This document shows, one piece after another, positions 90 to 48,438 of a DNA stretch of 59,071 bases. The DNA is from Clostridia bacterium (GTDB lineage Bacteria; Bacillota; Clostridia; Oscillospirales; Acutalibacteraceae), in contig JAGBUU010000049.1 of NCBI GenBank assembly GCA_017630655.1, positions 1 through 59,071 on the forward strand, in the 5' to 3' direction. The number at the start of each line of letters is the position of its first letter. Positions within the stretch are counted from its first letter, which is position 1. Under the pieces are notes generated by a model that ran no database searches, had not been told where the DNA came from, and saw only the letters and a list, made by a program, of their open reading frames with translations. A program made the translations under genes and the position numbers.

Positions 90-118
90 ATTATACCACA
101 CTTTCGCAAATAAATCAA
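90..118 (-). promoter_or_regulatory. sigma-A type promoter for the CDS starting at 49
   Basis: Minus strand reads TTGATT (118-113), 17-nt spacer, TGgTATAAT (98-90, extended -10). Confidence 0.5.
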
Positions 119-270
119 GGCAAAGCCTTGTATATCATCCGCAACTTGTTGCGGCATATCATCAATGCGGAGCATTGTATCTCATCAAGCCGCAGGGAGA
201 TGCACGCTGACGCGTGATGATATGCACCGCACTTCGCGCGGTGATGATATACCAAGCCTGCGGCTTGGAT
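116..270. repeat. Hairpin-linker repeat array 1 (seven short GC hairpins, conserved ATATCAT/ATGATAT linkers)
   Basis: Stems at 116-130, 139-154, 163-177, 203-216, 225-243 and 252-268, plus a degenerate unit at 186-197. Linkers are TATATCAT, CATATCAT and TATCTCAT, followed by ATGATAT twice. Confidence 0.75.
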
Positions 271-3082: not shown

Positions 3083-4553
3083 AGTTTTTCTCCTTTCCTT
3101 TTGCAGTTAGATATCCGCAAAGTATCCTTACTAATAATATAAACGCACATGTTATAAAAAAGCAATAAATATTTTTATCTTCGGCTATACGCACCACGCC
3201 AAAGCCATCTTCCCCTATAAAGCGAACTACCGTTATAAAAAACTCTGCCAAGGCTCTGCTAAGGAAAAAGAACGCCAAAGACAGGTATTTACCAAAAGGC
3301 AAAAAGAAAATTAAAACCGCTAAAACACCAAGTATTAAAGCCACGCTTATTGCAAGGGTTACAGCAAGGTTTGTGATAGGCGCCGCAAGGGCAACAAAAC
3401 CAAAATATCTTACTACTATAGGAAGTGTGCAAAATATACTGCAGACCGAGATAGCCAAAATATCGTAAGCATACCTAAAGGCCCTGCCTATCTTGCCAAA
3501 TTTTTCAAAGTTTGCGACATTGACAAGAAGCCTTGCAGGATAAAGCACCGCAAATGTTGCCGAAATTGATAATAGAAAGGCAACATTATAAAAGATATAC
3601 GGCTTTAGCATTACTGCTACAAATATACCAAATCCAAGTGCACTTAAAGGGTCGCTGTTTCTTCTGATAATCCGGGCTAAAAGCATAACTATGTAAGCAA
3701 TGCTTGCCCTAAGTATTGAAACGTGAAACAGGCATACCGTAAGGATTAAGAACGCTGCTATAGTGCCTATTATTACCGATATCCAAAGTTTTGTACGCCT
3801 GTTTATGAGATTCATAAGCACACCACAAATAATACCAAGGTGCATACCGGATACAACAAGCATATGGCTTACCCCTGCATTGCGTACACAAAGATTAAAC
3901 TCATCTGATATTCCGCTTTTATCCCCAACTGTAAGTGCCTTTAAAACGGCACCCACCTCATCTTTTCCCGACGAATCTATAGCGTTACATATGGCAAGTC
4001 TAACGTTGTATATTATTTTCCAAAAAGACACCTGACATTGCTTGTAGGAATATATTTTATCTATAACTCCCGAATAATAAACACCGTCTCCAAAATTATA
4101 GGAACGAAATTCCTCGCCCTGCAAAACGAACTCTATTCTTGCCGAAATTATGTCGCCCGGTAACGCAGCCGTTTTCGAGGTAAGGGTTGCTTTTACTTTA
4201 ATTCCAATAGCCTCTTTTTCGGTGCTGTCGGTTATTTTGAGGGACAGTGAAGCAAAATTTGGGGAATTATAATCTATTTGGGTTATTTGTCCTACTATGT
4301 CGGCAGTGCATCCTATAAGATTTTTACTCTTATTATCGATTATCTGCCCGACAGATATCACTCTTGCTGCAAGCACAATAAAAATAAGGGCGATAATCAC
4401 GCCCTTATTAATGTTATCTTTCTTTATAACAATAAACAGTATTGTTATAACGGCAACAAAAGCTATACAGATGACCGCGGTCCATATACTGTTAAAAGCT
4501 ACAAAGGATGCAATAAGTGCACCTATGCCTACAAGCACAAAAGGTCTGTACAT
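3075..4553 (-). CDS. comEC: ComEC/Rec2 family competence channel protein, short form without the metallo-beta-lactamase domain
   Basis: 492-aa polytopic membrane protein with a DUF4131-like N-terminus and a Competence domain (GVSHMLVVSGMHLG). No HxHxDH motif. Confidence 0.8.
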   Translation of the reverse strand: MYRPFVLVGIGALIASFVAFNSIWTAVICIAFVAVITILFIVIKKDNINKGVIIALIFIVLAARVISVGQIIDNKSKNLIGCTADIVGQITQIDYNSPNFASLSLKITDSTEKEAIGIKVKATLTSKTAALPGDIISARIEFVLQGEEFRSYNFGDGVYYSGVIDKIYSYKQCQVSFWKIIYNVRLAICNAIDSSGKDEVGAVLKALTVGDKSGISDEFNLCVRNAGVSHMLVVSGMHLGIICGVLMNLINRRTKLWISVIIGTIAAFLILTVCLFHVSILRASIAYIVMLLARIIRRNSDPLSALGFGIFVAVMLKPYIFYNVAFLLSISATFAVLYPARLLVNVANFEKFGKIGRAFRYAYDILAISVCSIFCTLPIVVRYFGFVALAAPITNLAVTLAISVALILGVLAVLIFFLPFGKYLSLAFFFLSRALAEFFITVVRFIGEDGFGVVRIAEDKNIYCFFITCAFILLVRILCGYLTAKGKEKNCA

Positions 4554-5458: not shown

Positions 5459-8080
5459 CTACTTAATCATATTTGCGATAATATCCTTTGCAGCGGCTAC
5501 TGCCTCGTCTGCCTTGGATATATCCTTGCCGCCCGCCATTGCACTATCGGGTTTTCCGCCGCCGTTACCGCCGGCTATCTTTGCAACCTCACGAACAATA
5601 TTTCCGGCATTTGCACCCTTTGTTATGGCATCCTTACCCGCAGCGGCACAGAAGGTCAGTTTATCTCCGTTAACTGCAGCAAAAAGGCAAACGGCACAAT
5701 CATTATCGCCCTTAACTTTATCGCACATTGTTCTAAGGTCGTTTGGCTGTGTACCATCAAGACGAGCAGTGATAATCTTAACACCATTAACCTCGTTTGC
5801 ACCTGCCATAAGGTCGGAAATCTTAGAGCCTGCAAGTTTTGCGTTAAGTGCTTCTACCTTTTTCTCGCTCTCTTTAAGTTCAGCCGCTACTGCACGGGCC
5901 TTTGCTGCAATTTCCATAGGATTTGCACTCTTAATAGCATCGGCAGCATCGTCGATAATGCCCTTATATTTATTAAGAAGGTCTAAAACATTTGCACCTG
6001 TAACCGCTTCAATACGGCGTACGCCTGCGGCAACAGAGGTTTCGGATACAATCTTGATAAGACCGATTTTAGCGGTATTGTCAACGTGGGTACCACCGCA
6101 GAGTTCTATAGAGAAGCCTTCCGCATTAACAACACGAACAACATCTCCGTACTTCTCTCCAAAAAGTGCCATTGCGCCGAGTTTTTTAGCCTCATCAATA
6201 GGCATTTCTCTGTTATCAACATTAATGCCCTGTAAAATCTTAGTGTTGATGAGGGATTCAACAGCATTAATTTCTTCAGCAGTTAAAGCCGAGAAATGTG
6301 TAAAGTCGAAACGAACTACCGCATCATTTACAAGTTGTCCTGCCTGCTCAACATGGTTGCCAAGAACAGTACGGAGTGCCGCCTGAAGAAGATGGGCTGC
6401 GGTATGGTTTCTGCGGATAGCAGCTCTTCGGTCGGCATCTATAATTGCGGTTACCTTGTCACCTACAGACACAGAGCCTGCTTCTACTTCTACCATGTGG
6501 GTAAAGATACCACCGGCCTTTGTGGTGTTAGACACCATAATATTACAGTTTGCATTAGAAATTACGCCTGTATCTCCAACCTGACCGCCGCCTTCGCCGT
6601 AGAAAACGGTTTTATCTAAAACGATAAGAGCCTTTTCGCCCTCACCTACTGTATCGGTAAGTTCACCGCCGACAACAATAGCCTTAACGGTAGCTTCTAC
6701 TGTAGTATCGGTATAGCCGAGGAAAACAGTATCTTCTACACCGTCAAAGGAAATTCCATCACTCTTCCAGGATTCAGAGTCGGAGGCTTTTCTTCCCTCT
6801 CTTGCCCTTCTTCTTTGTTCATCCATAAGAGCCTTAAAGCCATCCTCGTCAACAGTCATATTCTTTTCCTGTAAAATATCTTTTGTAAGGTCAAATGGGA
6901 ATCCATAGGTATCATAAAGTTTGAAGGCATCCTCTGCAGAGAGTGTGCCACCCTTTGCGGTTAAATCTTCAAGCATTGAAAGGCCAAGGTCTATGGTCTT
7001 TGCAAATGCCTTTTCTTCATTAGCTATAACCTTTAAGATGAACTCCTTGCGGCTTTCAAGGTCGGGATAAGCGTTCTTGCTTTCTTCAATAGCAACTGTT
7101 GCGGTCTCGGTTAAAAATGCACGAGTAATGCCGAGCAATCTTCCGTGGCGTGCGGCTCTTCTAATAAGTCGGCGAAGCACGTAGCCTCTGCCCTCGTTAG
7201 AAGGTACAACACCGTCGCAAATCATAAAGGTTGCACTGCGAGAGTGGTCAGTAATAGCACGAATTGAAACATCATTATTCTTATCCTTGCCATATTCTTT
7301 ACCCGCAATATCACAAACGGTATCTAAAATTCTGCGAACAGAATCAACCTCGAACATATTGTCAACGCCCTGCATTACACAAGCAAGACGCTCAAGACCC
7401 ATACCTGTATCAATATTCTTATGCTCAAGCTCGGTATAGGTGCCGTCACCCATATTGTTAAACTGGGTGAAAACGTTGTTCCAGATTTCCATATATCTGT
7501 CACATTCGCAACCCGGCTTACAGTCAGGAGAGCCACAACCGTATTTTTCACCACGGTCGAAATATATTTCGCTGCAAGGTCCGCAAGGGCCTGTTCCGTG
7601 CTCCCAGAAGTTATCTGCCTTGCCAAGCTTTACAATGCGATTTTCGGGCACGCCGATAACATCTCTCCAGAGAGCATAAGCTTCATCGTCCTGCTCATAC
7701 ACCGAGGGCCAAAGAAGCTCTTCGGGTATTTCTAAGGTTTTGGTTAAAAATTCCCAAGCCCACGGAATAGCATCACTTTTAAAGTAATCTCCAAAAGAGA
7801 AATTGCCGAGCATTTCGAAGAATGTACCATGGCGTGCGGTATGACCCACACGCTCGAGGTCGGGTGTTCTTATACATTTTTGACAGGTTGTTACCCTATT
7901 TCTTGGAGGTGTCACCTCGCCCGTGAAGAATTTTTTCATAGGAGCCATTCCTGAATTTATGAGAAGCAGAGACTTGTCTCCCTGAGGTACCAAGGGGTAA
8001 CTAGGCAGACGAAGATGACCTTTGCTCTCAAAATAGGAAAGATATTTTTCTCTTAAATCGTTAAGTGAAGTCCATTGCAT
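5459..8080 (-). CDS. alaS: Alanine--tRNA ligase
   Basis: 873 aa. Class II AlaRS N-terminus (FFESKGH...), editing-domain HTAAHLL and CGGTH motifs. Confidence 0.97.
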   Translation of the reverse strand: MQWTSLNDLREKYLSYFESKGHLRLPSYPLVPQGDKSLLLINSGMAPMKKFFTGEVTPPRNRVTTCQKCIRTPDLERVGHTARHGTFFEMLGNFSFGDYFKSDAIPWAWEFLTKTLEIPEELLWPSVYEQDDEAYALWRDVIGVPENRIVKLGKADNFWEHGTGPCGPCSEIYFDRGEKYGCGSPDCKPGCECDRYMEIWNNVFTQFNNMGDGTYTELEHKNIDTGMGLERLACVMQGVDNMFEVDSVRRILDTVCDIAGKEYGKDKNNDVSIRAITDHSRSATFMICDGVVPSNEGRGYVLRRLIRRAARHGRLLGITRAFLTETATVAIEESKNAYPDLESRKEFILKVIANEEKAFAKTIDLGLSMLEDLTAKGGTLSAEDAFKLYDTYGFPFDLTKDILQEKNMTVDEDGFKALMDEQRRRAREGRKASDSESWKSDGISFDGVEDTVFLGYTDTTVEATVKAIVVGGELTDTVGEGEKALIVLDKTVFYGEGGGQVGDTGVISNANCNIMVSNTTKAGGIFTHMVEVEAGSVSVGDKVTAIIDADRRAAIRRNHTAAHLLQAALRTVLGNHVEQAGQLVNDAVVRFDFTHFSALTAEEINAVESLINTKILQGINVDNREMPIDEAKKLGAMALFGEKYGDVVRVVNAEGFSIELCGGTHVDNTAKIGLIKIVSETSVAAGVRRIEAVTGANVLDLLNKYKGIIDDAADAIKSANPMEIAAKARAVAAELKESEKKVEALNAKLAGSKISDLMAGANEVNGVKIITARLDGTQPNDLRTMCDKVKGDNDCAVCLFAAVNGDKLTFCAAAGKDAITKGANAGNIVREVAKIAGGNGGGKPDSAMAGGKDISKADEAVAAAKDIIANMIK

Positions 8081-22529: not shown

Positions 22530-23990
22530 TTATGTTGTGGAAGTTTCTGTGTCATTGGGAGTTTCGGTCTCGGTAGAAGAGCCACCATTGTCTTCTTCCC
22601 CGCCGCCGTTTTGTTCGCCACCGTCTCCCTGATTTTCATTTTCATTGGGAGTGGTGTTTTGGTCGGAATTTTCGGGGGTGTTTTGGTCGGGATTTTCAGG
22701 GGTGGTTTGGTCAGGTGTTTCACCGTCACCCGTATTATCCTGATTTGGAGTATCGGAATTCTCCGGAGTATTGTTTGTATCCTCTTTCTCCTCATCCTTA
22801 TCGTTCTTATTTGAACTGCTTGAAGAGCCCGAAGAACCTGTATACCACTTATTTTTTTCTATTCCGTTTGTATTCATATATTCATCCTGAGATATTCCGT
22901 CATAAATCATGGCGTGAATAAGCTTGGATGCATAGCCCAGGTCATAATAAACGCTGGAGCCTGCATATGAAACATAGAAGTTATCATTAATAACATATTT
23001 TGCCTGGGGTACACGGGTCTGTTCAAAATTAACCTTTTTGCCAAGCACGTGGGTTGCAAGTGAAACCGCTTCGCTAAAGCTTAGAGATGTTTGCATATTA
23101 GGAAGAATTGCCTTTATAAGACCCGGATACTTAGAAATCTCAATTGAGAGCACTTTGTTAAGCAGTTGCTCCATAACCACTCGCTGTCTGTCGGTTCTGC
23201 CATAGTCGTTTGCAGTTCCCTCGCCTGTTGATACCGAACGAATTCTCGCCCATGCAACAGCCTGAATACCTGTAAGAAGTTGTTTGCCGGCCTTTTCTAC
23301 ATATTTAGGGTTTTTAATGCCAAGCTTGTTTGCCTGTTCTTTGATGTTAGCGTTCAAGCCGTTTTTAGCATTGATTTCTCGCTCTAAAACCTCAATTTCA
23401 ACTCCGCCAACAGCATCTATTATTTCTGCCATACCGAAGAAGTTAACGGTTGCATATTCCTTAATATCAAGGCCAAAGTTTTCATTAATGGTTTTTATTG
23501 CATAGGATGCACCGCCACGGGAATAAGCCGAATTTATTTTATTAGGCTTGTAACTTTTTCCTTTGTAGTCGGGCATTTTAACAAGCGTATCTCTCATTAT
23601 AGAGAAAAGTTTAATGTCGCCCGTTCCCGTATTTATAGAAAGCACCATTATGGAATCGGATAAACCACTGAAATTCTGTTTTCTTGAATCTATTCCAAAA
23701 AGTGCTATGTTAATTATTTGGTCGTCAATAGGCTGGATTTCCTGAATTTCAGGGTCATCAACCTCTTGGTGATTGTAATCCTGTTTAAAGCCGGCTATCA
23801 TTCCAATAACCCAACTAATAGCTATAACAAGTGCTAAAATGACCGCAATAAGTGATATAACAACGGTTCTTTTTAAAACAGACATTGAAAGAAAGCCTGT
23901 TTTCAACTTATAAAAGAAGCCGCCCTTTTTAGCCCTTGTTCTTGTATGTATGGGCTTATCGTGATTTACTCTTCTATTATCACTACTCAT
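22530..23990 (-). CDS. LCP (LytR-CpsA-Psr) family cell-wall glycopolymer ligase with an acidic low-complexity tail
   Basis: 486 aa. N-terminal TM helix, LCP core (NIALFGIDSR...SDSIMVLS...RD), and a C-terminal T/P/E/N/D/Q-rich tail. Confidence 0.9.
   Translation of the reverse strand: MSSDNRRVNHDKPIHTRTRAKKGGFFYKLKTGFLSMSVLKRTVVISLIAVILALVIAISWVIGMIAGFKQDYNHQEVDDPEIQEIQPIDDQIINIALFGIDSRKQNFSGLSDSIMVLSINTGTGDIKLFSIMRDTLVKMPDYKGKSYKPNKINSAYSRGGASYAIKTINENFGLDIKEYATVNFFGMAEIIDAVGGVEIEVLEREINAKNGLNANIKEQANKLGIKNPKYVEKAGKQLLTGIQAVAWARIRSVSTGEGTANDYGRTDRQRVVMEQLLNKVLSIEISKYPGLIKAILPNMQTSLSFSEAVSLATHVLGKKVNFEQTRVPQAKYVINDNFYVSYAGSSVYYDLGYASKLIHAMIYDGISQDEYMNTNGIEKNKWYTGSSGSSSSSNKNDKDEEKEDTNNTPENSDTPNQDNTGDGETPDQTTPENPDQNTPENSDQNTTPNENENQGDGGEQNGGGEEDNGGSSTETETPNDTETSTT
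22653..22724. repeat. Three imperfect 24-nt tandem repeats inside the LCP tail
   Basis: Units ggtgttttggtcggaattttcggg, ggtgttttggtcgggattttcagg and ggtggtttggtcaggtgtttcacc. They encode the TPENxDQN repeats. Confidence 0.85.
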
Positions 23991-36597: not shown

Positions 36598-36768
36598 ATG
36601 ACATGCTATCATAACTTTTGTATTTACCAGGAAAGCGGAAATTGTAAGCTAGACGAAATTACGATTAATGAAACCGGTATGTGCGACTGTTGTATTTGCA
36701 TCAATATCGACTCTGACCAATTAATAAAGACAAAGACCGACTTGCTTAATAAATTCTCGCAAAAATAA
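36598..36768 (+). CDS. Small Cys-rich protein (56 aa), unknown function
   Basis: Hand-translated as MTCYHNFCIYQESGNCKLDEITINETGMCDCCICINIDSDQLIKTKTDLLNKFSQK. Seven Cys, a weak GGGTGA SD, and an immediate strong terminator. It is below the ORF-track cut-off. Confidence 0.55.
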   Translation: MTCYHNFCIYQESGNCKLDEITINETGMCDCCICINIDSDQLIKTKTDLLNKFSQK

Positions 36769-36808
36769 ACACAAGGACAACAGGTGCTACCGTTGTCCTT
36801 GTGTTTTA
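36769..36808 (+). terminator. Rho-independent terminator after the Cys-rich ORF
   Basis: 13-bp stem acacaaggacaac / gttgtccttgtgt followed by TTT. Confidence 0.8.
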
Positions 36809-36813
36809 TAGAA

Positions 36814-36950
36814 TTTATGACAGAGTCATAAAAAAGGGGGGCATATGGCGACTTCGTCGCAGTGATATTCCCCTGCGGCGAGTGATATACGGCTTTCGCC
36901 GTGTGATATTTGACCTTGCGGTCAAGTAAAATATTTTCCTTGCGGAAAAT
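36814..36950. repeat. Hairpin-linker repeat array 2 (six hairpins, GTGATAT linkers)
   Basis: Stems tttatgac/gtcataaa, gcgac/gtcgc, tcccc/ggcga (1 mismatch), acggc/gccgt, ttgacc/ggtcaa and attttcc/ggaaaat. ATAT cores at 36843, 36865, 36885, 36906 and 36931. Confidence 0.75.
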
Positions 36951-36968: not shown

Positions 36969-37772
36969 CTATTGTTTTGTAATTAGTACGGTGTATTCAA
37001 TGTGGGTTTCGGTCTCTAACTGCTTTGTTGTGGCGTTCACTCCGCCGAGACGCATTGTATCCACCATTTTTGTAAGGCTATTTGCAAACAGCCTTACATC
37101 ACCTATCGCACATTTTCGAACCGGCTCGACCTTCTCTTTTTTGGGGGCAAGGAGCCTGTCTATATATTCTTCGGTTTCACTAAGGGTAAGTTGCTTTGCA
37201 ATAATATAGTCGAGCGCTTCTTGCCTATTTTCTTCGGCTATACGAAGCAGTGCTCTTGCGTGTCGCTCGGTGAGTCGGGCGGCTACTATACGCTGCCTTA
37301 ACTCTGTGTCTAATTTTAAAAGCCTTAATTTGTTTGAAAGGGTTGACTGTGCTACACCTATTTTTTCGGCTATGTCGCATTGAGAAAGCCCATATATTTT
37401 TATAAGGCGGTTTATGCCCTCTGCCTCTTCAAAAACCGTAAGGTCGCTTCTGAGTAGATTTTCAATAATTGTATAGCAGTCTGCCGTTAAATCATCGGCT
37501 CGCCTAATAATGCAAGGCACCTTTCTAAGCCCGGCCATTTTTGCGGCACGAAGCCGCCTTTCGCCCGCAATTAACTGATATTTTCCCGATTCAAAGCGGA
37601 CAATTAAGGGCTGCAGCACCCCGTTTTCCTTTATGCTGTCTTTAAGGCGTATAAGTTCGTACTCATCAAAGGTTTTTCTGGGCTGATTTTCGTTTGGTAT
37701 AATATCCTCTACCTTTAGATTTATTAACTTTCCGCTTATCACCTTTTTCACATCCTTTGCTGATAAAAGCAT
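36969..37772 (-). CDS. noc: ParB-family nucleoid occlusion protein (Noc-like)
   Basis: ParB box (LIAGERRLRAAK, ENLLRSDL) and a Noc-like C-terminus, directly downstream of rsmG. The start is ambiguous. ATG 37772 is chosen because the longer ORF-track start would be encoded by the terminator hairpin. Confidence 0.8.
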   Translation of the reverse strand: MLLSAKDVKKVISGKLINLKVEDIIPNENQPRKTFDEYELIRLKDSIKENGVLQPLIVRFESGKYQLIAGERRLRAAKMAGLRKVPCIIRRADDLTADCYTIIENLLRSDLTVFEEAEGINRLIKIYGLSQCDIAEKIGVAQSTLSNKLRLLKLDTELRQRIVAARLTERHARALLRIAEENRQEALDYIIAKQLTLSETEEYIDRLLAPKKEKVEPVRKCAIGDVRLFANSLTKMVDTMRLGGVNATTKQLETETHIEYTVLITKQ

Positions 37773-45525: not shown

Positions 45526-47659
<2,134 letters not shown>

Positions 47660-47664
47660 AAGGC

Positions 47665-48438
47665 TTAACCCCCGTTTCTTTTAATAAATTCGGCAGCAAG
47701 ATTATCGTAAGCAATGCCGCCCTTGTTTCTTGGGTCGTAATACTGAATAGGTTTACCGTGGCTTGGTGCCTCGGAAAGCCTTACCGCACGAGGTATGGTT
47801 GTAGAGAAGAGTTCCCTTGGAAAGAACTTTTTAACCTCGCTTACCACCTGCTGTGTAAGGTTTAATCTTCCGTCGAACATTGTAAGCACAATTCCCTCTA
47901 TCTCAATGCCCGGATTGAACAGTCTTTTTACCTGACGTACTGTGCCAATAAGCTGGGATAACCCTTCAAGTGCAAAATATTCACACTGAATGGGAACAAG
48001 CACGGTATCTGACGCACAGAGAGAGTTTATTGTTATGAGTCCGAGAGAGGGCGGACAATCAATAAAAATAAAATCGTAATCTGCCTTAATATGACAAAGG
48101 GCGGATTTTAGTTGTGCCTCACGATTGTTTATTGAAATAAGTTCCACCTCTGCACCAGCAAGGTTCATATTACATGGTATGATATCTACACCCGAAAAAT
48201 CAGTGCTTATAATTGCACTTTCTGCCTTAGCCTTGCCTATAAGAAGGTCGTAAACAGAAACGCCGAGCTTTCGTTTATCGATACCGTAGGCCGAGGTGGT
48301 GTTACCTTGAGGGTCAGCATCAACAACAAGAACCTTTTTGCCCCTTTTGCCTATTCCGGCAGCAAGGTTTACAGCGGTAGTGGTTTTGCCTACTCCACCC
48401 TTTTGGTTTACAACCGAAATTATCTTACCCACGGACAT
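47665..48438 (-). CDS. parA: Chromosome partitioning ATPase ParA/Soj
   Basis: 257 aa. Deviant Walker A NQKGGVGKTT. Confidence 0.96.
   Translation of the reverse strand: MSVGKIISVVNQKGGVGKTTTAVNLAAGIGKRGKKVLVVDADPQGNTTSAYGIDKRKLGVSVYDLLIGKAKAESAIISTDFSGVDIIPCNMNLAGAEVELISINNREAQLKSALCHIKADYDFIFIDCPPSLGLITINSLCASDTVLVPIQCEYFALEGLSQLIGTVRQVKRLFNPGIEIEGIVLTMFDGRLNLTQQVVSEVKKFFPRELFSTTIPRAVRLSEAPSHGKPIQYYDPRNKGGIAYDNLAAEFIKRNGG

Follow-up and report, generated by a model that had tools for sequence, protein, structure and literature searches.

A hairpin–heptamer array behind noc in a Clostridia contig: a solo, near-threshold member of the Gut-1 family

In a 59,071-nt stretch of DNA from a Clostridia bacterium of the Acutalibacteraceae (GenBank assembly GCA_017630655.1, contig JAGBUU010000049.1, positions 1–59,071, called the window below), the ParB-family gene closest to Noc is followed by a short series of small hairpins set apart by near-identical heptamers, and the question that this locus raises is whether such an array serves noc or belongs to something else. 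An earlier note, made from the sequence alone, had read the array, here called array 2 (36848–36950, minus strand), as a structured 3′ untranslated region (UTR) of noc that marks a synteny breakpoint. We identify array 2 as a solo Gut-1 element (RF01706 in Rfam) with units in a single orientation, a new and slightly subthreshold member of an already catalogued motif, and find that it says nothing special about noc or about chromosome segregation. For the family as a whole we favor, at a probability of about 0.55, the reading that Gut-1 is a multicopy, lineage-restricted intergenic repeat that would act as a multivalent platform for a four-helix-bundle protein and would be a passenger at noc.

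Array 2, its match to Gut-1 and the noc locus

Read on the minus strand, array 2 is a five-unit Gut-1-type array composed of a hairpin followed by ATTTTAC, three hairpins each followed by ATATCAC, and a closing hairpin. In plus-strand letters the hairpins lie at 36848–36860 (GCGAC/GTCGC), 36869–36881 (TCCCC/GGCGA, with one C·C mismatch), 36889–36902 (ACGGC/GCCGT), 36910–36925 (TTGACC/GGTCAA) and 36933–36950 (ATTTTCC/GGAAAAT), with periods of 20, 21 and 23 nt; the linker heptamer is GTGATAT (36862–36868, identical copies starting at 36882 and 36903), with one degenerate version, GTAAAAT, at 36926–36932. The minus-strand loops are GAA, GCA, GAAA, GCAA and GCAA. Hairpins, linkers and loops were thus all placed correctly by the earlier note, and of the six units it had counted, the five between 36848 and 36950 stand, whereas its first unit (TTTATGAC/GTCATAAA, 36814–36832) does not. 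That palindrome, TTTATGAC-aga-GTCATAAA with an A/G run behind it up to 36841 (noc-strand form CCCCCCTTTTTTATGAC...GTCAT), is a separate element outside array 2, because it has no linker and is found after noc with or without an array; it may be a site for a protein or may belong to the 3′ end of noc.

Array 2 is more than a chance arrangement, as judged from heptamer clustering, folding statistics and a covariance-model match. The window contains 11 copies of GTGATAT where 5.3 are expected, three of them within a 48-nt stretch of array 2, and across the 59 kb just two clusters of such heptamers are found. Folding z-scores are −5.2 on the minus and −5.5 on the plus strand, with 0 of 200 shuffles equaling the array. 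Tandem Repeats Finder reported nothing at array 2, and three contigs from the same species (L001, L002 and L004) are identical across the region and therefore uninformative on its conservation. At Rfam gathering thresholds only tRNA was found in the window and nothing at array 2. The covariance search that the earlier note had proposed, its author not having recognized the family, matches array 2 to RF01706, "Gut-1 RNA", at 36860–36937 of the plus strand over model positions 1–77 of 77, with 48.2 bits (gathering threshold 50 bits) and E-values of 1.8e-6 for the whole window and 1.1e-8 in a local search. When six loci of relatives with the same architecture were searched by E-value, arrays scoring 59.2, 54.4, 54.3 and 52 bits came out above the threshold. 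The RF01706 consensus consists of three hairpins separated by GUGAAAU, one base off the GUGAUAU of array 2, which with its five hairpins, three GUGAUAU and one GUAAAAU has the three or more hairpins and the heptamers that define the motif; the published seed alignment itself contains GUGAUAU-type copies behind a tRNA gene and terminator.

Gut-1 was described from 43 examples, "human gut only", as three hairpins, in one supplementary sentence that gives no organism, context or function, and was rated "certainly" RNA and not cis-regulatory (Weinberg et al. 2010, Genome Biol 11:R31, PMC2864571). Our literature search found no later paper that mentions the motif, and for Gut-1, REP-like Clostridia repeats and the protein family introduced below, it turned up no functional work other than that paper and one on a Coxiella intervening sequence. 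Two other array types were considered and rejected for array 2. A CRISPR array does not fit, the repeat being just 7 nt and the "spacers" 13–18-nt hairpins, with Tandem Repeats Finder negative and no cas genes seen nearby; nor do ToxI-like type III toxin–antitoxin repeats, as the units differ from one another, the order is terminator, array, promoter and four-helix-bundle gene, and the protein has no PADLOC match.

The gene upstream of array 2 (36969–37772, minus strand, 267 aa, ParB_N and HTH_ParB domains) scores 253 bits against TIGR04285 (nucleoid_noc), below the cutoff of 315. Array 2 begins 18 nt past its stop codon and ends before an intrinsic terminator on the same strand (36767–36806, 17-bp stem, tail ATTTTT) that is conserved in relatives. 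Lying between stop codon and terminator, array 2 is placed within the predicted noc 3′ UTR, as the earlier note had it, and the strand carrying its ATATCAC heptamers would be the RNA strand. We compared this site in seven contigs (L246–L252) whose Noc homologues are 64–84% identical to that of the window. The order mnmE-mnmG-rsmG-noc is kept in all seven, and the genes past noc vary. The five units of the window recur in L248 and L249, with one compensatory A–T to G–C change (window against L248, the compensatory support at this locus), one wobble and partly decayed linkers, and the XRE-type gene that they adjoin there is a different one, of 266 aa. The equally close relatives L246 and L247 have the same noc-XRE-UDG order as the window but no array hairpins; L250 has an element of a different class at the site, with ATTTCAT linkers and its own bracket stem; and nothing occupies the array position in L251 and L252, in which noc is followed by other genes. 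The post-noc GCCCCCCTTTTTTATGAC-nnn-GTCAT palindrome and the terminator are common to most of these relatives, the palindrome being recognizable in six of the seven (L246–L251, as a variant in L250 and L251) and reduced to a C-run/T-run remnant in L252. The noc site is therefore a hot spot of gain, loss and replacement and not the seat of a conserved noc 3′ UTR device. As a separate observation, L246 and L247 show at the array site (3771–3830) a run of heptamer-like repeats without hairpins (G-strand ...GTAATAGTGAAGAGTGAAAAGGTAAAG...) that resembles bare Gut-1 linkers.

The synteny breakpoint does not survive this comparison either: soj-spo0J follows noc in none of the seven relatives, with or without an array, and the window itself holds, about 10 kb away, a ParB paralogue (46823–47659, minus strand, 46% identical to the Noc-like protein) adjoined by a ParA-family ATPase gene (47665–48438, minus strand), the two being a likely spo0J/soj pair.

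Anatomy and address of the Gut-1 elements

A scan of one genome per species for three ATATCAY heptamers spaced 11–20 nt apart returned at least 120 stretches, mostly from metagenome-assembled genomes (MAGs) of gut Clostridia labeled Acutalibacteraceae, Oscillospiraceae, Eubacteriales, Ruminococcus, Faecousia and similar. In the Clostridia loci nearly all the spacers between heptamers are hairpins and in other phyla they are not. The host range of Gut-1 is that of Oscillospiraceae/Acutalibacteraceae-type gut Clostridia. The earlier note would have given up its proposal had such units been found nowhere else; the same heptamer–hairpin arrays occur in dozens of Clostridia MAG loci, and the shared unit architecture places both arrays of the window in one family, as the note had supposed. 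Among viral contigs, 102 chains fit the pattern and two of these are true arrays, and the four-helix-bundle protein has no PHROGs or PADLOC match; a phage origin was rejected on these grounds. A linker-agnostic finder of hairpin chains was dropped: AT-rich DNA gave it too much noise, and for true arrays its settings were too strict.

We call the strand that carries ATWTCAY the C-strand and the other, the sense strand of the Rfam model, the G-strand. On the C-strand a unit is a heptamer ATWTCAY plus a hairpin of 4–8 bp with a loop of the form C(GNA/GNNA)G. Among 225 distinct units there are 116 triloops and 76 tetraloops, the closing pair is C–G in 181, and the commonest loops are GAA (39), GCA (21), AAA (11), GGA (9) and GCAA (9), against three in total of the opposite-strand forms TTC and TGC. 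This bias of loop and closing pair between the strands makes the unit an oriented module, and the GNRA-type loops that the earlier note had seen on the noc-sense strand follow a family-wide rule. The stems are almost perfectly Watson–Crick with very few wobbles. With units oriented by element polarity, C-strand G·T outnumbers A·C by 16 to 3 (13 to 2 in C-type and 3 to 1 in G-type units), and sheared G·A-type mismatches adjoining the loop favor the C-strand by 28 to 1; a previous count oriented by linker only (12 to 7) was ambiguous. These biases point to the C-strand as the folding strand: the strand that tolerates RNA- or single-stranded-DNA-type pairs is probably the C-strand in both halves of an element, the reverse of the Rfam annotation. 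The two halves of several bipartite elements match RF01706 on opposite strands, so the strand of the model carries little information, and the Rfam entry may be both on the wrong strand and too narrow.

Array size is variable, with 3–5 units, and the arrays are usually bipartite, a full element combining a closed half and an open half in opposite orientations. Elements of classes A and C open with G-type units, which make up the closed half, and continue with an open half of C-type units; the closed half is bracketed by a long-range stem (TATATTCGCC...GGCGAATATA in class A, CCGTTCC...GGAACGG in class C); class B begins with a closed half of C-type units and continues with G-type units. In an alignment of 14 class A sequences the local hairpins are 93.6% paired, and 23 of 38 pairs have changed on both sides; 0 of 500 shuffles did as well, and slid controls reached 28–44%. 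The class A bracket stem is 99.3% paired with one covarying pair. The class B bracket joins the 5′ arm and loop of the first hairpin to the center of the element by 9–13 contiguous pairs in 17 of 18 elements, and occurs in six sequence variants, every one of them compensated, loop bases included. Predicted folds of whole elements use the bracket (z −10.5 and −7.5). Members of one class keep their stems from species to species and among paralogous loci, with variable loops, and open-half units have been exchanged between otherwise near-identical elements (L043 and L103). Heptamers are uniform within one element and differ between classes, which calls for selection or for a copying mechanism. 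Beyond the standard heptamers, L046 has the same architecture with ATGTAAT/ATTACAT linkers (about 7413–7700, minus strand, upstream of a four-helix-bundle gene), and two GC-rich loci, L336 and L337, have it with GTGAAGC/CCTTCAC linkers and C-type loops TCC/CCC, not GNA.

Array 1 of the window (116–268, minus strand) is a complete bipartite class B element. Its order is tRNA-Ser (314–405), intrinsic terminator, three ATATCAT units, bracket arm, three inverted units and an outward promoter (TTGATT-17-TATAAT, 118→90), a layout that recurs behind other tRNA genes in L053, L019 and L102. The first hairpin (252–268, CCAAGCC-GCA-GGCTTGG) forms 11 contiguous pairs with the bracket arm CCTGCGGCTTG (186–196 on the plus strand), and what the earlier note had taken for a decayed unit of this array (tctccctgcggcttg) is in fact the conserved 3′ arm of that long-range stem. 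Rfam gave no match to array 1 even at E ≤ 10, and no antisense promoter was found in it. The terminator ahead of array 1 (271–314) has a loop, ttttgtctacc...aaaa, that recurs in different MAGs (L019, L053, L102, L108 and L016) behind different tRNA genes (Ser, Glu, Leu, Tyr and Val), so that the terminator may travel with the element.

The preferred address of the family agrees with that of array 1. A tRNA gene lies within 400 nt of 33 of 86 arrays, and in all 33 cases the array is downstream of the last tRNA. In the 26 loci that were read out, the tRNA gene is followed by an intrinsic terminator, as a rule set between an A-run and a T-run, and the element begins no more than about 10 bases from that T-run. 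An outward promoter closes the elements of classes B and C. Class A has at its center a positionally conserved antisense promoter (TTGAAA-16/17-TGnTATTAT, in 11–12 of 14 elements) directed back at the tRNA terminator, from which, judging by sequence, an RNA of about 130 nt could be made from the closed half; in L043 (7513–7541, minus strand) this promoter is composed of the first C-type hairpin and linker. The idea that divergent promoters at the center produce both halves fits class A, and was rejected as the convergent class B is at odds with it and as no antisense promoter was found in array 1. Likewise, the idea that C-type arrays always precede a terminator, and hence are 3′-end RNAs, was abandoned, an own-strand terminator following 8 of 67 such arrays, array 2 among the eight. 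Elements occur at a density of about one per 30–90 kb, or tens per genome by rough extrapolation.

Other features of the window lie outside this family. A 56-aa cysteine-rich open reading frame (ORF; 36598–36768, plus strand) without Pfam or NCBIfam match stands between array 2 and the XRE gene, with a similar ORF, judged by eye only, at the corresponding position of L246 on the other strand, and Tandem Repeats Finder reports 2.5–2.9 copies of a 24-nt repeat, GGTGTTTTGGTCGGAATTTTCAGG, at 22653–22722.

A four-helix-bundle protein as neighbor and putative partner

Clustering of all ORFs within 1.5 kb of the arrays at 79 loci gave one recurrent neighbor, a protein of about 115 aa encoded directly downstream of the array in 9–10 of the 79 (L012, L024, L027, L032, L046, L053, L066, L102 and L112 carry the gene). 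It matches PF05635 ("23S rRNA intervening sequence protein") and TIGR02436 ("four helix bundle protein"), with a weak bAvd-like match as well, and its nearest solved relative, 2RLD, is uncharacterized and was deposited with five chains. Neither Pfam, NCBIfam nor the nearest PDB entry assigns the family a function, and the protein has no match in PADLOC or PHROGs. This protein, and nothing connected with Noc, ParB or the XRE protein, is the sole recurrent neighbor of the family; the link to those proteins that the earlier note had envisaged was not found.

Seen from the protein side, the association is far tighter. We searched metagenomes for TIGR02436/PF05635 genes with enough upstream sequence, and 54 of 61 have at least four standard heptamers in the 400 nt upstream, where by our own arithmetic about 0.2 would be expected by chance (8 of 16,384 heptamers). 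Of the other seven, five are preceded by arrays whose heptamers are variants (ACATCAY, ATATCGC, CATATCG and ATATAAC). A co-oriented tRNA gene ends within 500 nt upstream of 31 of 44 four-helix-bundle genes, and an array was found downstream of the gene in none of 55. In a viral collection all six genes have the array upstream, with a readable tRNA gene before five of them and its terminator in four. Gut-1 elements thus precede nearly every examined gene of one TIGR02436/PF05635 subfamily (L253–L338 besides the nine loci named above). The heptamer type, moreover, tracks the protein cluster: ATATCAT goes with clusters 0, 1 and 4 and with the singletons L286 and L291, ATATCAC with cluster 3 (three of four members), ATTTCAC with clusters 2 and 9, ATTTCAT with clusters 5 and 12, ACATCAY with cluster 6, ATATCGC with L318 and ATGTAAT with L046.

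A multivalent platform is the most economical mechanism for these observations, because heptamers are uniform per element and class-specific and because one protein clade nearly always adjoins the element. In such a platform the hairpins would be clamps that hold identical heptamers single-stranded at fixed spacing, on RNA or on transiently single-stranded DNA, to be read by the cognate four-helix-bundle protein, which would be encoded beside a "master" copy and act in trans on solo copies. Solo arrays would be such trans targets, or relics. Array 2 would be a passenger without link to Noc, ParB or XRE function, contributing to the noc mRNA at most stable 3′ hairpins and possibly a protein-binding site.

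Several points weigh against this platform reading. Array 2 itself falls slightly short of the Rfam threshold (48.2 against 50 bits), the linkers in L248 have decayed to ATATCGC and ATATAAC, as would be expected in the absence of constraint, and the 59-kb window contains no four-helix-bundle gene. Only about 12% of arrays adjoin such a gene, and neighbors that are inherited together, with no recognition between them, could also produce the agreement of heptamer with protein clade. Nucleic-acid binding by TIGR02436 proteins is putative, and the analogy drawn with Avd, a protein of diversity-generating retroelements, goes back to a weak Pfam match. Most full elements lie between a terminator and the next promoter, where the sense strand is expected to be little transcribed, the two halves of an element seem to fold on opposite strands, which no single transcript explains, and the scarcity of own-strand terminators behind C-type arrays counts in the same direction.

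More tentatively, and at a low probability, the elements and the TIGR02436 (S23p/Avd-like) proteins may together form a hitherto unrecognized nucleoprotein system of gut Clostridia, anchored where tRNA operons end on their 3′ side. In such a system the closed half would be a rosette of hairpins whose identical, single-stranded heptamers wrap around an oligomeric protein (compare the five chains of 2RLD), heptamer and protein would have coevolved, solo arrays would be trans targets or relics, and the functional strand would be the reverse of that in Rfam, produced in class A from the central antisense promoter. If this is true, an orphan RNA motif and a very large protein family would both acquire their first function. 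As it stands, the anatomy and the host range of Gut-1, an orphan since 2010, are now described and a partner can be proposed: the element is modular, oriented and bipartite, has a preferred address behind tRNA terminators and, from the protein side, a near-obligate TIGR02436/PF05635 neighbor, and two puzzles, the nature of Gut-1 and the role of S23p-like four-helix-bundle proteins, are thereby joined.

Competing explanations and known systems

The rival that survives best, though we consider it doubtful as the whole explanation, is that Gut-1 is a selfish or neutral palindromic repeat of the kind known as repetitive extragenic palindromes (REPs) and bacterial interspersed mosaic elements (BIMEs). 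Such a repeat would form single-stranded DNA hairpins, spread by recombination or through a hairpin-specific enzyme, collect in the safe gaps after terminators, carry the protein gene as a co-tenant or as cargo similar to that of an intervening sequence (IVS), and be without any host function at noc. In favor of this explanation are the varying state of the noc site among close relatives, which have the array, lack it or have it replaced, the frequent copies (tens per genome, as extrapolated above), their location directly after terminators or stop codons, the near-perfect Watson–Crick stems, the units swapped between L043 and L103 and the linker decay in L248. It is also in line with the dominance of GNA triloops closed by C–G, d(GCGAAGC)-type loops being known as the most stable of the DNA mini-hairpins. 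In Coxiella burnetii, moreover, the related S23p gene lies inside a 23S rRNA IVS that is described as a selfish element (PMC4990558). Against a purely selfish repeat stand the lack of any recurrent transposase or gene of the REP-associated tyrosine transposase (RAYT) type within 1.5 kb of the 79 loci, the uniform and class-specific heptamers, the covarying long-range stem, the conservation of stems across species and paralogous loci within a class, and the nearly complete tie seen from the protein side, which goes beyond what a shared niche predicts. Platform and selfish repeat are not mutually exclusive.

It is improbable that array 2 represents a free-standing small RNA on the strand of the Rfam model, that is, a plus-strand transcript with GUGAUAU linkers antisense to the end of the noc transcript. 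RF01706 does match the plus strand, and Gut-1 was rated a certain, non-cis-regulatory RNA (PMC2864571). No convincing plus-strand promoter was found upstream, however, and the stretch comes after a terminator hairpin and continues into noc coding sequence; the plus-strand loops UUC, UGC and UUGC are not known stable motifs, as opposed to the GNA/GNNA loops of the other strand, which the wobble and sheared G·A counts also favor, and the bipartite halves match the model on opposite strands.

Least probable is a noc-specific structured 3′ UTR or Noc/ParB/XRE-binding array marking the loss of soj-spo0J, as the earlier note had proposed, for although array 2 lies within the predicted noc 3′ UTR and its last unit, ATTTTCC..GGAAAAT, is loosely like a Noc-binding palindrome, the idea is already contradicted by the comparative data on soj-spo0J, on the relatives that lack or have replaced the array or carry it beside a different XRE-type gene, and on the other members of the family, 33 of 86 behind tRNA genes and none of those examined tied to noc.

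Among known systems, the published Gut-1 motif shares with the elements described here the short consecutive hairpins separated and flanked by a purine-rich heptamer and the gut Clostridia-type sequences; it comprises three hairpins without context, whereas the elements here are bipartite arrays with a long-range stem, tRNA terminators and TIGR02436 genes. The REP/BIME repeats of enterobacteria with their RAYT proteins are alike in being extragenic palindromes with a conserved flanking oligonucleotide that occur in both orientations after stop codons and terminators, multicopy and polymorphic between relatives, with one associated gene flanked by repeats, and Gut-1 arrays are indeed extragenic, multicopy, clustered palindromes in both orientations that are polymorphic between relatives. 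They differ in that Gut-1 units are much shorter and stand in direct tandem with a 7-nt linker, with stems that differ within an array, and in that the partner is a 115-aa four-helix-bundle protein and not a nuclease; no Y1-transposase/RAYT gene was found within 1.5 kb of the arrays at the 79 loci, a search that did not extend to whole genomes. The CsrB/RsmZ RNAs, plasmid iterons and the omega heptads of pSM19035 present many regularly spaced copies of one short motif, CsrB doing so between hairpins, and iteron and omega arrays adjoining the gene of their binding protein in direct and inverted orientation; ATATCAC also fits the omega heptad WATCACW. Unlike in these systems, the Gut-1 motif sits in linkers and not in loops, its binding is putative, there is no sequence or protein homology, and the heptamers lie 20–25 nt apart where omega heptads are contiguous. 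The 23S rRNA IVS of Coxiella burnetii differs in its position, inside a 23S rRNA helix and not after a tRNA-operon terminator, and Gut-1 differs from it in having heptamer–hairpin repeats and scattered solo copies without the protein; what the two have in common is a protein of the same PF05635 family in or beside a hairpin-rich insert at a stable-RNA gene (PMC4990558).

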